Part shown: positions 1 to 4,610 of the stretch, one piece after another
How positions within the stretch are numbered: position 1 is the first letter of the stretch
How the letters are laid out: every line of letters begins with the position of its first letter
NCBI GenBank assembly: GCA_017934595.1
Contig: JAGBJG010000008.1
Location: 723-64,722 of the forward strand
Direction of reading: 5' to 3'
From: Bacilli bacterium
GTDB taxonomy: Bacteria > Bacillota_I > Bacilli_A > RF39 > UBA660
Length of the DNA: 64,000 bases
Made by a program: the position numbers and the translations under genes
Notes under the pieces: model-generated
Database searches by the model: none
The model's input: only the letters and a program-made list of their open reading frames with translations
What the model was told of the DNA's origin: nothing

Positions 1-1312
1 CATATACATCTCCAGCAGTAACAGTACCATGTCTTCTAACAACGCCATCATTGATAGCTAAGACATCACCATTTCCACATATAAATGTATTTTCTCTTGG
101 TATACCACATTCTACTGCTAAATCAGTATGTTCTTTTAGCATTCTATATTCACCATGAGCAGGCATTAAATATTTTGGTTTAATTAATCTTAACATTAAT
201 TTTAACTCTTCTTTATTACCATGACCTGATGCATGAATGTTAGATAAACTACTAGTAGTATATACTTTAACGCCTTGTAAACATAGTTTATTAATTGTTT
301 TAGATATAGCAAGTGCATTACCAGGAATAGCAGATGATGAGAATATTACTATATCAGATTGTTGTAATTTAATAGATTTATGTGTACCATTCGCGATTCT
401 AGATAAAGCACTTAAAGGTTCACCTTGTGTACCAGTACATAATAAACATACTTCACTAGGTTTTAATTTATTTGCTTCTTCTGGAGTTACTAATACATCT
501 TTACTAGTGATATATCCACCTTCAATAGAAATATCAATATTATTATCCATACTTCTACCAAATACAGCTACTTTTCTTCCATGCTTTTTACATGTTTCAA
601 GAATATGTTTAAGTCTATATATATTTGATGCGAATGTGGCAATAATAATTCTTGTATCACATGAATCAAATATTTCATTTAAGGCATTATCAACTAAAGA
701 TTCTGATTTTGATAATCCTTCGTTTAATACATTAGTACTATCACTAAGTAATAAAGTTACACCCTCATTACCTAATCTAGCCATTTCATATAAATTAGAC
801 ATAGGTCCAATTGGAGTTAAGTCAAATTTAAAGTCTCCAGTTGTAACTATAGTACCATTAGGTGTTTTAATAGCCATACCATGTGCATCTGGAATAGAGT
901 GAGTTACTAAAAAGAAACTAATCTCCATATTTTTAAATTTTATTACATCTTTTTCCGTATATACATGTAGGTTATCATACCTAATATTTCTATCTTCTAA
1001 TTTTCTTCTAATTAAGCCCATAGCTTGATTAGGTGCATAAATATCTGGAATATTAACCATTTGAAGTAGAAATGGAATACTTCCTATATGATCTTCATGA
1101 CCGTGTGTTATAAATAAACCTTTAATTTTACTTTCGTTTTCCTTTAAGTAAGTGAAATCTTGGATGACATAGTCAACACCTAATATTTCACCTTGAGGAA
1201 AAGTTATACCCGCATCAATTATTATTAATTCGTCACCGTGTTCAACACAGTACATATTTTTACCAACTTCACCAAGGCCACCCAAGGCAAAGACTAAGGT
1301 ATCAGTTTTCAT
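1..1312 (-). CDS. rnj: Ribonuclease J (metallo-beta-lactamase/beta-CASP RNase); N-terminal ~437 codons, C-terminus lies beyond the window start
   Basis: Reverse translation from ATG (1312..1310) gives MKTDTLVFALGGLGEVGKNMYCVEHGDELIIIDAGITFP...GLFITHGHEDHIGSIPFLL (HxHxDH motif). A GAAAGGAG RBS lies upstream. The gene is absent from the ORF track because it is open at the window edge; track ORF 237..902(+) is its antisense shadow. Confidence 0.85.
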   Translation of the reverse strand, partial: MKTDTLVFALGGLGEVGKNMYCVEHGDELIIIDAGITFPQGEILGVDYVIQDFTYLKENESKIKGLFITHGHEDHIGSIPFLLQMVNIPDIYAPNQAMGLIRRKLEDRNIRYDNLHVYTEKDVIKFKNMEISFFLVTHSIPDAHGMAIKTPNGTIVTTGDFKFDLTPIGPMSNLYEMARLGNEGVTLLLSDSTNVLNEGLSKSESLVDNALNEIFDSCDTRIIIATFASNIYRLKHILETCKKHGRKVAVFGRSMDNNIDISIEGGYITSKDVLVTPEEANKLKPSEVCLLCTGTQGEPLSALSRIANGTHKSIKLQQSDIVIFSSSAIPGNALAISKTINKLCLQGVKVYTTSSLSNIHASGHGNKEELKLMLRLIKPKYLMPAHGEYRMLKEHTDLAVECGIPRENTFICGNGDVLAINDGVVRRHGTVTAGDVY

Positions 1313-1399
1313 TTAAAAAATCTCCTTTCTTTTTAAATTTAATTCATTAATAAATTTGACTACATAATTATACCTTTTTTTTACTATTTTGTCTAGTTG

Positions 1400-1427
1400 T
1401 TGACAAAAATTCGGGGGGGGGTATAAT
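1400..1427 (+). promoter_or_regulatory. Sigma-A-type promoter TTGACA-N16-TATAAT with a G9 homopolymer in the spacer
   Basis: TTGACA is at 1400..1405 and TATAAT at 1422..1427. The spacer is aaaattc followed by nine G (1413..1421). An AGGAG RBS and ATG 1454 follow. Confidence 0.7.
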
Positions 1428-1453
1428 TATTTTATAAAATAGGAGTGTGTTTT

Positions 1454-2371
1454 ATGGAAGATAATCAAAATAATATTGAAGAAGTTAACCCGGTGGTAAT
1501 ACCAAAGGGCGAAAAGACTAAAAAAAGTAATACCTTAGTTATATTTTTAATAATTATAATTTTAGTTTTATTAGGAATATGTGGTTATTTTGTATACGAT
1601 AAATATTTTAGTAATAAACCAAGTGTTCCTAGTACAAATGAGCAAATTAATAATAGTGTAGACGACAGTAATGCAAATATCAACGATACAAATGATAATA
1701 ATCAGTTAAGCAATAATACGAATAATGATAGCTTAAACAATAATGGTGTAGTACTGACTGATGCTCAAATTAAGGAATTTGTAAAGGATTTAATAGATAA
1801 ATATTATGGAGCTTTTTATCATAATATGAATGTAGTATTCGGTAAATTTGATGATCGTATAAAGGTTGGAATGGCTATAAGTCACTTGGACCCTGGTAGT
1901 GTTCATATTCTTGAAGTTTCTTCTTTTAATGAATCTGATCATGATAAATTAAAGTCTCTTGTATGTTTTTATTCTGTTTCAAATTTTACAGCTTTCAAGG
2001 TAAAAGAGGTTGAATCAAAATATAAAGAATTATTTAATGAAGAAATGCCGAATGTTGAATCACCTTCTAGTGCAAGCCTAAACAAGTACTATCTTTTTGA
2101 AATGCAAGATGGTTGATATTATGTTTCGGGTTATCTATGTGGTGGTCCATATATCAATGATTATCCTAAATATGCTGTATCAAGTTATAATTTTGATGAT
2201 AATTTATTAGAAGTCTTTGTCAATACTATATATAATCCTGGTGATGGATTATCTATTAGTGGTGGCCCATCATGTTATCCAAGCAATGATAAAAAAACAA
2301 CATGTAGTTATAAACTTACATTTAAAAATGAAAATGGTAAATATATATTAGTTAATTCAGAAGAGGTATAA
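1454..2371 (+). pseudogene. Membrane-anchored N/D/S-rich surface protein gene interrupted by an in-frame TGA (2114..2116); the frame stays open for 84 more codons to TAA 2369..2371
   Basis: The ATG at 1454 follows an AGGAG RBS. There is an N-terminal TM helix (LVIFLIIIILVLLGICGYFVY) and an Asn/Asp-rich linker. After ...EMQDG-TGA the same frame reads YYVSGYLCGGPYINDYPKYAVSSYNFDD...KNENGKYILVNSEEV and ends directly at a hairpin terminator. Confidence 0.6.
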
Positions 2372-2388
2372 TTATACCTCTTTTATAT
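2362..2388 (+). terminator. Hairpin terminator after the extended ORF
   Basis: Stem agaggtat / atacctct (8 bp, loop aatt) followed by a T-rich stretch; it starts within the last codons of the 1454..2371 frame. Confidence 0.55.
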
Positions 2389-2434
2389 ACTTTAAAATCT
2401 TGACATGAACCATATTTTATAGTAATATTGTTCA

Positions 2435-2481
2435 TAGAGGAGATGGTCCTTGCCCGCTGGGGCTGGGGTCATCTCTTTTTG
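2435..2481 (+). ncRNA. Candidate ~45-nt transcript: promoter plus GC-rich hairpin plus T5, antisense to the 3' end of the 2469..3002 gene
   Basis: TTGACA (2400..2405), 17-nt spacer, TAATAT (2423..2428). Then GAGATGGTCC (2440..2449) pairs with GGTCATCTC (2467..2475), including G.U pairs that work only on the + strand, with an inner GCCC/GGGC stem, followed by TTTTT. Confidence 0.3.
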
Positions 2482-3002
2482 TATGCTTTAATCAAAATAT
2501 TATCTTTTTTAATTATGATTTTGTTTATCCATATACGTCGGCATACCCCATCTTTAAAAATATTCTCTGTTTGCTTAATAATGTAGTGTATTGGTATTTT
2601 GCAATCGGTTATGTCAATTATAAAATTATGTGATTGCTTTTCACAGTTTTTGATTGCGTTATCAATCGCGCGCATTAAACTTTTTGAATCTTTTAATTCC
2701 TTTAAATCCCAATATTCTCCATTCCACCAATAATCAGCCGTTTTAATATTGTTTGGTGAATTTACACGTGGCTTCATATAAATTTCCCCACCAAAAGTAT
2801 TTTCAATCCAATTGGCTACTTCTAGTTCTTTTAAAGAATAGTCTAAAACAACGTTTTTGCTGCCGTCTACAATGTATATTTTATCTTTTGAAATATAAAA
2901 GTAACTATCTAACACTTTGTGACTATTAGGTGTAGCTTTTTCTATCAATTCTTTTGTAATATCGATGTAATTAATATTTATATCTAAAGTTTCTAATGCC
3001 AT
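2469..3002 (-). CDS. Hypothetical protein with a possible PD-(D/E)xK (restriction-endonuclease-fold) motif
   Basis: 177-aa ORF. The segment ...IKTADYWWNGEYWDLKELKD... fits a D-x(n)-D/E-x-K pattern. No family was confidently recognised. Confidence 0.55.
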   Translation of the reverse strand: MALETLDININYIDITKELIEKATPNSHKVLDSYFYISKDKIYIVDGSKNVVLDYSLKELEVANWIENTFGGEIYMKPRVNSPNNIKTADYWWNGEYWDLKELKDSKSLMRAIDNAIKNCEKQSHNFIIDITDCKIPIHYIIKQTENIFKDGVCRRIWINKIIIKKDNILIKAYKKR

Positions 3003-3131
3003 AAATAAAATCCTTTCTATTATTTACAGCATACATCCTAACAATTATATAATATATTTTAATATTGAACAATCATAATTTGACAAAATAAAACATTTAG
3101 TATATTATAAACGCTTAACAGGGGGGATAAT

Positions 3132-3587
3132 ATGAATATTAAGAGTTATTATATAACTAAGAATGATATTGTAATTAAAGATTATGATAATAAGACTACA
3201 ATATTAGAGCTTAATCGTCAAAACCTAATGAATATGATTAATGACTTAGATACTCAAGTTAAGGAAAGTGCTGATGAAATTATAAGTAAGGAAGATCAAG
3301 CTTATAGAAAATTAATTAATGTATTATCTATCAATACTTTAGCTTCATTATTCTTAAGTTTTATCGTTTTCTTAGGATTTACACATGCTAGTTATATAGG
3401 TATGGTATTAGGTATTGTCTTATCTTTAGGTTTAGTTGTTTATTCTTTAATTATGACTTTCTTAGGCGCTAGAAAAATAAGAGGTTATAGAAAACAATAT
3501 AGAATCTATGAAGGTAGAGAAATATTAGTTAATATGTATAACAAATTATCAAAAGGCTTAGATGCAGAACTTGTGGATGTTTATTAA
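3132..3587 (+). CDS. Hypothetical membrane protein (two central TM helices)
   Basis: 151-aa ORF with a GGGGGG/ATAAT-ATG initiation region and hydrophobic segments LASLFLSFIVFLGF and GMVLGIVLSLGLVVYSLIMTFLG. Confidence 0.6.
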   Translation: MNIKSYYITKNDIVIKDYDNKTTILELNRQNLMNMINDLDTQVKESADEIISKEDQAYRKLINVLSINTLASLFLSFIVFLGFTHASYIGMVLGIVLSLGLVVYSLIMTFLGARKIRGYRKQYRIYEGREILVNMYNKLSKGLDAELVDVY

Positions 3588-3641
3588 TAAACATCTTTTT
3601 TTTGCATAAAAAATAATGTAAAATATATATAGGTGATATTA

Positions 3642-4610
3642 ATGGGCTTATTTGATAAATTTAAAAATCTATTTACTAAAGAGGAAAAAGCAGAAGTAGA
3701 AGTATATGAAAAAGGATTAGAAAAAACAAGAAATGAATTTGTTAATAAAATAAGTATCTTAAATAATAAATATAAAAAAGTATCTAATGAGTATTTTGAT
3801 GAATTAGAAGAAATATTTATTATGGCTGATATTGGTGTTAATACTGTGATGGATTTTATTGATAAGTTAAAGAAAAGAGTTAAATCTGAAAATATAGAAA
3901 ATAGTGAAGATTTAATGAATATCATCGTAGATGAAATGTTTATTATCTACGTTAATAACGATATTATTGTTAATAAAATTAATTATAATAATGATGGACC
4001 AACTGTTGTATTAATGGTAGGTGTTAATGGAGTTGGTAAAACTACTACAATTGGTAAACTTGCTAATAGAGAAATCAAAAATGGTAAGAAAGTATTATTA
4101 GTAGCAGGTGATACTTTTAGAGCTGGTGCAGTAGAACAACTAGTTGAATGGGGTAAAAGAATTGGTGCAGATGTAGTATACAAAAATGAAGCTGATCCAT
4201 CAAGTGTTATTTATGATGGTATTGATAAAGCAGTTAAAGAATCATATGATGTTGTATTTATAGATACAGCTGGAAGATTACAAAATAAAACTAATTTAAT
4301 GAATGAATTAGATAAAATCAATAGGGTTATAGGAAAACTTTTACCAGGGGCACCACATGAAACATTATTAGTTATAGATGGTACAACAGGTCAAAATGGT
4401 ATAAGTCAAGCTAAAAACTTTAAAGAAATTACTAATATTACTGGTATTGTATTAACTAAATTAGATGGTACTGCTAAAGGTGGTATAGTTTTAGCTATCA
4501 AAGAAAATGTAGGTATACCAGTTAAATTTATTGGTTTAGGTGAAAAGGCTGAAGACTTAAAAGTATTTGATATAGAAAAATATATCTATGGATTATTTAG
4601 GAGTGAATAG
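3642..4610 (+). CDS. ftsY: Signal recognition particle receptor FtsY
   Basis: SRP-GTPase motifs GVNGVGKTTTIGKLA, DTAGRL and TKLDGTAKGG. The start was moved to ATG 3642 (MGLFDKFK) behind an AGGTGAT RBS. Confidence 0.92.
   Translation: MGLFDKFKNLFTKEEKAEVEVYEKGLEKTRNEFVNKISILNNKYKKVSNEYFDELEEIFIMADIGVNTVMDFIDKLKKRVKSENIENSEDLMNIIVDEMFIIYVNNDIIVNKINYNNDGPTVVLMVGVNGVGKTTTIGKLANREIKNGKKVLLVAGDTFRAGAVEQLVEWGKRIGADVVYKNEADPSSVIYDGIDKAVKESYDVVFIDTAGRLQNKTNLMNELDKINRVIGKLLPGAPHETLLVIDGTTGQNGISQAKNFKEITNITGIVLTKLDGTAKGGIVLAIKENVGIPVKFIGLGEKAEDLKVFDIEKYIYGLFRSE

Follow-up and report, generated by a model that had tools for sequence, protein, structure and literature searches.

Close to the start of the window (the whole stretch of 64,000 nucleotides that was analysed), between the gene for RNase J and a conserved gene for a 151-aa membrane protein, lies a strain-specific accessory module headed by a consensus promoter whose spacer consists mostly of a run of nine G. 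The module sits in the gap between RNase J and ftsY, in a window of 26% GC that belongs to a genome of 1.0 Mb, assembled in 18 contigs and about 27% GC overall (26.8%). The parts of the module and the sites that adjoin it are as follows.

1367..1395, minus strand: promoter-like site of the RNase J gene, TAGACA-17-TATAAT, divergent, an 11/12 match in a consensus scan
1398..3073, no strand assigned: strain-specific accessory module of about 1.7 kb with approximate bounds, holding the poly-G promoter, an anchored-protein gene, a hairpin RNA element and a CdiA_C-like gene
1400..1405, plus strand: -35 hexamer TTGACA
1406..1412, plus strand: non-repeat part of the spacer, AAAATTC, near-identical to AAAATTTC at the second poly-G locus of the genome
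1413..1421, plus strand: G9 homopolymer GGGGGGGGG, the predicted slippage tract, on the non-template strand and flush against the -10
1422..1427, plus strand: -10 hexamer TATAAT
1440..1444, plus strand: Shine-Dalgarno sequence AGGAG, 9 nt before the ATG at 1454
1454..2116, plus strand: coding sequence of 220 aa under the standard code (P0002 in public collections), ending at the in-frame TGA 2114-2116
2117..2371, plus strand: in-frame continuation, 85 codons past the premature TGA, kept in full-length homologues
2359..2384, plus strand: hairpin resembling a terminator, where the full-length frame ends
2400-2481: promoter-like TTGACA-17-TAATAT with nothing behind it but a 19-bp GC-rich hairpin and UUUUU (-27.5 kcal/mol, z = -4.7)
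2469..3002, minus strand: 177-aa gene with a CdiA_C (PF18451) toxin-like domain (E = 1.4e-15), convergent
3121..3126, plus strand: G6 run that serves as ribosome-binding site for the conserved gene of the 151-aa membrane protein

The preliminary description had placed TTGACA at 1400..1405 and TATAAT at 1422..1427 on either side of a 16-nt spacer, with nine G at 1413..1421 filling most of it, and both the exact positions and the composition of the spacer (AAAATTC followed by G9, 1406-1421) were recovered here. The promoter matches the sigma-70 consensus at 12/12 positions and is the top site of the region in a consensus scan, and its layout, TTGACA-7 nt-G9-TATAAT, encloses a homopolymer of at least about 7 nt between a recognisable -35 and -10. 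Past the -10, the ribosome-binding site follows at 13 nt and the ATG at 27 nt. On the other side stands, back to back with the poly-G promoter, the promoter-like site of RNase J, and only 5 nt separate the two -35 hexamers; the RNase J site belongs to the conserved flank, and its sequence is kept in all of the strains in which the module is missing.

Runs of this kind are exceedingly rare in the genome, as had been claimed from the window. Counted over the whole genome, G/C runs of 4 nt number 520 and those of 5 nt number 67, after which there is one run of 6, three of 7 (with non-promoter G7 tracts at C12:34700 and C14:13517), none of 8, one of 9 and one of 11; from composition, only 0.024 runs of at least 9 nt and 0.0004 of at least 11 nt are expected genome-wide. 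Within the window, the other G/C runs of at least 5 nt are one G6, three G5 and one C5. The only two runs of at least 8 nt in the genome, the G9 and a G11, both stand flush with TATAAT in consensus promoters of cell-surface protein genes, an arrangement (adjoining TATAAT, with TTGAC[AT] 6-9 nt upstream) that a random tract would attain with p ~3e-6 per tract. The placement of G tracts in promoters is non-random, and the near-absence of runs of 6-8 nt (1, 3 and 0) suggests that slippery tracts have been purged elsewhere in the genome.

An origin of the run in errors of sequencing or assembly, such as the poly-G produced by two-colour Illumina chemistry, is exceedingly improbable. Artefacts of this sort do exist, and many of the poly-G promoters in related metagenome-assembled genomes (MAGs) lie at contig ends, but the G9 tract is internal to its contig with unique sequence on either side. 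The same tract is present in three ENA scaffolds and one Logan contig with 100% identity over 4.2-6.6 kb, so that independent assemblies by different assemblers return it unchanged. Because the tract is contig-internal and reproduced in this way, we do not regard it as an artefact of assembly, and its exact position within a consensus promoter, shared with 55 sites in the family and at least 120 in other species (described below), likewise argues against an artefact.

The G11 run lies at 751-761 on the minus strand of contig C12 and is the only other long G/C run in the genome. The promoter to which it belongs reads TTGACT-AAAATTTC-G11-TATAAT-gttttatagaatAGGAG-...ATG, with a 19-nt spacer, and the window site reads TTGACA-AAAATTC-G9-TATAAT-tattttataaaatAGGAG-...ATG; the layout common to the two is TTGAC[AT]-AAAATT(T)C-Gn-TATAAT-...-AGGAG. 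Behind the G11 promoter stands a type IV pilin-like gene with an fn3 domain, whose product begins with an N-terminal methylation/cleavage motif followed by a hydrophobic helix, as expected of a prepilin (PF07963 N_methyl, E = 1.1e-7, above the cut-off; sequence MKKKGFTLIELLAVIVILAIIAL). The contig of our genome (C12:1-775) stops within the repeated fn3 region of this gene, a region in which two assemblies disagree, and in a longer assembly of the same clone (L053:3710-5884) the product is a protein of 724 aa with a thrombospondin-like CSASCGGG motif and a glycine-rich, ALK_LTK_GRD-like C-terminus. A similar picture is seen in the one congeneric genome that was examined (G001), where the only two G runs of at least 8 nt both adjoin TATAAT before pilin-like genes, one as TTGATT-9 nt-G8 with a spacer of 17 nt and the other as TTGACA-9 nt-G10 with a spacer of 19 nt. 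The two loci of each genome thus differ in tract length, being G9 and G11 in the source genome and G8 and G10 in the congener.

In a survey of the family, for which one genome was taken from each of 151 genera, G7 followed by TATAAT (GGGGGGGTATAAT) occurred 55 times in 10 of the 151 genera, with a maximum of 30 occurrences in one genome (G102). The same 151 genomes gave 2 occurrences when the sequence was reversed and 2 when C7 replaced G7 (CCCCCCCTATAAT). Every family locus that was fetched consists of a -35-like hexamer, 7-10 nt, a tract of G7-G13 and TATAAT, and the spacers of these promoters as assembled measure 15 nt in 2 cases, 16 nt in 1, 17 nt in 2, 18 nt in 8, 19 nt in 12 and 20 nt in 4. 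Some genera (represented by G102, G142, G116, G065 and G156; loci L019-L048) bear many poly-G promoters on paralogous surface-protein genes, and the number of G varies among near-identical paralogous promoters, namely 7/10/11 in G102, 10/11/13 in G142 and 9/10 in both G116 and G156. The genes behind poly-G promoters are of a consistent kind: a hydrophobic N-terminal segment (anchor, signal or prepilin) is found in 22/25 of their ORFs versus 27% of this genome's ORFs taken as background (p = 3e-10). Many of the family's poly-G copies lie no more than about 50 nt from a contig end, which we attribute to the breaking of short-read assemblies by length-heterogeneous homopolymers. The poly-G-driven proteins of G142 were considered as homologues of the window protein; their architecture is alike, with no significant homology.

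The design also extends beyond the family. When GTDB species representatives were scanned for TTGACA-N6-9-G>=9-TATAAT, at least 120 stretches were returned, and most of the matches listed are gut MAGs of Clostridia, Christensenellaceae, Bacilli, Anaeroplasmataceae, Saccharibacteria, Treponema and Fusobacterium, with a few isolates among them (e.g., Blautia luti, a Streptococcus sp. and Streptobacillus notomytis). One family member with a poly-G promoter (G114) is recorded as 'uncultured Bacilli bacterium' from rabbit gut, and the sample names attached to the assemblies of the clone studied here suggest a ruminant gut catalogue. A metagenome scan with TTGACAAAAATTCGGGGGG did not find this locus and returned the same design in unrelated taxa only. 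As a separate observation, two metagenome contigs from an unrelated taxon of about 36% GC (L055 and L056) have near-identical upstream flanks and the same start of the spacer, TTGACAAAAATTC, one of them carrying G9 at the contig end and the other G12 followed by TAGAAT.

The preliminary description had proposed that tract length be compared among strains, and such a comparison can be made at the locus itself. A homologue of the downstream protein (P0003) leads to contig L068 (ENA ERZ842392), the only other strain found with the module, whose RNase J flank is 94% identical to that of the window and whose intergenic region is identical at 138/141 positions. The promoter of L068 is otherwise the same and carries G8, and hence a 15-nt spacer, against the G9 of the window; the coverage of this contig is 2.5x, at which a homopolymer miscall is possible. 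Tract length therefore differs where the flanks are conserved, both between L068 (G8) and the window (G9) and among the paralogous promoters of relatives, which differ by 1-4 G. Within the clone, all assemblies, which are 100% identical, have G9 at the window site and G11 at the pilin locus; an exact-protein look-up returned only clonal copies of the module, all with G9, and the Logan contig of the clone was seen in four samples. The clone occurs in SRR12529170 and in the runs of SAMN15830100, SAMN15830130 and SAMN15830140. The majority tract length is stable across the samples of the clone.

Would the gain or loss of one G matter to the promoter? The perfect TTGAC[AT]/TATAAT pairs of the genome have spacers of 15 nt (1), 16 nt (14), 17 nt (25), 18 nt (3) and 19 nt (1), the sole 19-nt spacer being that of the pilin promoter itself. 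Since the genome's own promoters are almost all spaced by 16-17 nt, a change of one G in either direction should alter promoter strength. The earlier claim that such a change would bring the spacing to 17 or 15 nt holds, with G8 giving 15 nt and G10 giving 17 nt in a genome that prefers 16-17 nt. G9 (16 nt) and G10 (17 nt) fall within the ordinary promoter range, and G8 and tracts of at least G11 fall outside it. This spacer preference predicts a rheostat of the porA type; it also suggests that the assembled form of the window promoter is active, and that of the pilin promoter inactive. The G9/16-nt state is probably ON or intermediate, because 16 nt is within the range of ordinary active promoters in this genome, and the G11/19-nt state of the pilin switch is probably OFF.

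We consider it likely that the G9 tract is a hypermutable promoter-spacer switch in this lineage. Under this reading, slipped-strand mispairing at replication would add or remove one G at a time, and the number of G would move TTGACA relative to TATAAT (15 nt at G8, 16 nt at G9, 17 nt at G10 and 18 nt at G11), such that transcription of the surface-protein gene could be dialled to strong, weaker or off among the cells of one clone. Slipped-strand phase variation of this promoter, as had been put forward for the locus, gains support from comparative data, in particular from the twin site in the same genome, the congener, the 55 sites in the family and the G8 of L068. Slippage would not be unrestrained, because mismatch repair is present and intact, with MutS as an ORF of 856 aa and MutL as one of 592 aa; for the same reason a moderate switching rate is likely. 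With the tract flush against the -10, the bases beside the -10 would always be G, including that at -14, which is one half of the extended -10 TG motif used by this organism. In the ordinary promoters of the genome, G is found at -14 in 28% of cases versus about 10% at neighbouring positions, and TG occupies -15/-14 in 26/130 promoters. A flush G tract would be expected to preserve the G contact at -14 whatever its length, and the enrichment of G at this position may explain why G is preferred over C on the non-template strand (55 vs 2 in the 151 genomes).

The spacers of the family members sit less comfortably with a switch, in that a model in which 17 nt is the ON state does not predict spacers that are mostly of 18-19 nt. 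Either most of these promoters are parked off, or spacers built on a G tract have a different optimum. It is here that a rival reading has to be weighed, according to which the tract is a static promoter element of stable length, for example a regulator binding site or a rigid A-like spacer, within a portable promoter cassette, and the length differences between paralogues and strains are ordinary slow indel divergence. That most family members are at 18-19 nt rather than scattered about 17 nt would be in keeping with such an element, as would the preference for G over C beside the -10 (55 vs 2), which implies that the identity of the base matters besides the length of the tract. The intact mismatch-repair genes and the finding of G9 and G11 unchanged in every assembly of the clone, over several samples, point the same way. 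Against this, near-identical paralogous promoters differ in the number of G only, the G8 and G9 forms of the present locus are embedded in flanks identical at 138/141 positions, and the contigs of relatives frequently break at the tract. Runs of 6-8 nt have been purged elsewhere, and runs of 9-11 nt survive only in these promoters; known tracts of the same length and position, furthermore, are hypermutable (PMC7864442, PMC3899988). On balance we hold a static element to be unlikely.

A switch is of interest chiefly for what it would control. The product of the gene behind the promoter had been described as a membrane-anchored, Asn/Asp-rich protein, and this part of the description stands, with an N-in transmembrane anchor followed by a disordered linker; the gene itself is cut by a TGA at codon 221. 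The frame after this stop is still open and conserved, and homologues align past it, which had suggested genetic code 4 (TGA = Trp), a possibility that was ruled out genome-wide. Among 393 long ORFs delimited by TAA/TAG, 72 of the 79 in-frame TGA codons fall in the first or last decile, where they either precede the true start codon or serve as the true stop, and TGG is used 1138 times. In each of seven window genes that were checked, TGA is found upstream of the real start or in the final few codons. The code of the genome is standard and not of the Mollicute type, and the downstream gene is therefore one of 220 aa with a premature stop. Because the 85 codons past the TGA are open and conserved, either the nonsense mutation arose recently or termination at this codon is leaky or bypassed by readthrough.

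For searches and folding only, a conceptual read-through product of 305 aa was used (P0001). Its AlphaFold model (mean pLDDT 72.5, and decent at residues 100-305) comprises a transmembrane helix at 27-52, a disordered Asn/Asp-rich linker at 54-99 and a folded domain at 100-305, of which the premature TGA cuts off five of the six C-terminal beta-strands in the model together with the most conserved motifs of the family. What is left in the 220-aa product is an N-terminal cytoplasmic tail, the transmembrane helix, the linker and the first part of the ectodomain. For the ectodomain, Pfam gave no family above the cut-off, and Foldseek against the PDB gave nothing at E<0.001, with only a weak resemblance to NTF2-like folds or curved sheets. 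The protein family is tiny, with 13 representatives at E<1e-10 among 1.8 billion, and a search of genome contigs with P0001 found no related loci. When the gene is compared between L068 and the window, conservation is seen over the first ~57 codons and at the 3' end, whereas the part that encodes the ectodomain has no nucleotide similarity and an amino acid identity of 35-38%; by this comparison the difference looks to be an allele replacement, of a type typical of exposed, diversifying proteins. An anchor, linker and ectodomain, a swapped allele and a module that is missing from nine strains together make this gene a target of the contingency type. Separately, the tail and transmembrane anchor (aa 10-100) recur with 43-67% identity on unrelated ectodomains (P0142, P0145 and P0148-P0151; L200); one of these proteins, P0145, was considered for its shared N-terminal anchor, and its promoter is an ordinary one without a G tract.

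The remainder of the module offers some indication of its history. Nine other strains of the same species-level cluster, obtained from look-ups of RNase J variants (eight read as DNA and one by gene table), have 21 nt (ttttatatattatgagtataa) in place of the module between RNase J and the 151-aa membrane-protein gene, such that the two genes are 160 nt apart (the latter at 3132 in the window). The left junction lies 2 nt upstream of the -35, and the poly-G promoter thus arrived with the module; at the module boundaries no target duplication and no recombinase were seen. The CdiA_C-like gene is an orphan, without a delivery domain and without an obvious immunity gene, and a search for sequence relatives of its product in the PDB found none. 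Overlapping its stop codon in antisense is the hairpin element at 2400-2481, which might act as a second terminator or give rise to a tiny antisense RNA; Rfam gave no match over 1200-3700. In L068 the CdiA_C-like gene is mostly deleted and the anchored-protein gene intact, the reverse of the situation in the window. Overall, the module looks dispensable and decaying.

The locus may accordingly have to be read as a relic, that is, as a tract which is or was a slippage switch and which now heads a decaying cassette whose gene has been inactivated by a nonsense mutation. This reading is compatible with the hypermutable switch that we favour, and we hold it tentatively, rating it somewhat below an even chance. 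Under the standard code the TGA at codon 221 removes five of six C-terminal strands, the module is missing from the nine other strains, and L068 shows decay of the partner gene instead. The promoter, on the other hand, still matches the consensus at 12/12 positions, the 220-aa anchored product might keep some function, and the 85 open and conserved codons past the TGA speak of a recent mutation, a leaky stop or readthrough. Whichever holds, the proposed switch may have little consequence in this clone, because its gene has a premature stop and the cassette is accessory and apparently decaying; the truncation of the gene makes its practical importance for the clone small.

Slippage in a promoter spacer has clear precedents. 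In Mycoplasma hyorhinis, slippage of a poly-A tract in the promoter spacer controls the vlp surface lipoprotein genes; here the repeat is poly-G, and the genome, unlike that of M. hyorhinis, is not of the type in which TGA encodes Trp. The fimbrial genes hifA and hifB of Haemophilus influenzae are controlled by spacer-length slippage of TA repeats in overlapping divergent promoters (PMC3899988). The promoter-like site of RNase J is likewise divergent from the poly-G promoter and back to back with it, and yet the tract, poly-G rather than TA, is confined to the surface-protein promoter's spacer and leaves the spacing of the RNase J promoter unaffected. In Neisseria meningitidis porA, the transcript level follows the number of G in a spacer poly-G tract and is graded rather than purely on/off (PMC3899988, section 3.2), and poly-G/C tracts in general are less stable than poly-A/T tracts (PMC3899988). 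In Treponema pallidum, transcription of tp0126, with a poly-G tract between -35 and -10, is best at a 17-nt spacing, and the tracts of the tp0126, tprL and tprE,G,J promoters are poly-G of about 7-12 nt whose lengths vary within isolates around a dominant length (for tp0126 and tprL, between 7 and 11), the effect of length having been demonstrated by fragment-length analysis and reporters (PMC7864442).

By its architecture, the present locus would belong to this porA/tp0126 type of promoter-spacer phase variation. Like porA (and also opc and fetA, with poly-C), it has a homopolymer in the -35/-10 spacer of a sigma-70-type promoter that serves a surface protein, and like tp0126 it has poly-G between the -35 and -10 of a putative surface-protein promoter. 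The differences are of host and of design. In contrast to Neisseria, the host is an uncultured, mismatch-repair-proficient, low-GC member of the gut Bacilli and not a pathogen, and where Neisseria uses both G and C, the tract here is nearly always non-template G (55 vs 2) and always flush with the -10. Compared with T. pallidum, the phylum and the target proteins are other ones, and the present switch is proposed on comparative evidence.

Spacer slippage is textbook knowledge for a few pathogens, and current discussion of phase variation in gut commensals centres almost exclusively on invertible promoters. In the literature on phase variation of gut commensals we met with invertons and with pathogens, and found no homopolymer promoters in gut Firmicutes. 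In uncultured, genome-reduced gut Bacilli, long G runs occur almost exclusively in promoters of surface proteins, as seen at this locus, at its twin, in the congener and in about 7% of the family's genera. We regard it as evenly balanced whether poly-G promoters make up a widespread and undescribed class of contingency switch in mismatch-repair-proficient gut commensals (uncultured Bacilli, Clostridia, Christensenellaceae and others). If so, dozens would be at work in certain genomes, forming a 'phasome' of switches ahead of genes for pilin-like and membrane-anchored surface proteins. Their design would be one of non-template G, set flush with the -10 so as to preserve G at -14 irrespective of tract length, and with a spacer that rests for the most part at 18-19 nt; the cassette of the window would be a portable copy, brought into the RNase J-ftsY gap together with a variable surface-protein gene. 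The family-wide pattern and its design rules are of more interest than the single locus. The poly-G signature offers a simple way to predict stochastically expressed surface structures, such as pili and anchored proteins, in organisms that are unculturable. It also carries a warning, in that MAG assemblies will break or mis-count at poly-G promoters, and a gene that is present in a metagenome need not be expressed.

A last observation, which speaks in favour of the switch, concerns the other G run of the neighbourhood, the G6 that forms the ribosome-binding site of the 151-aa membrane-protein gene. Here six strains have G6 and three (L072, L073 and L078) have G7, and between L078 and the window the extra G is the sole difference across the stretch. 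A G7 in the same ribosome-binding position also precedes another gene of the genome, at C10:29839-29845.
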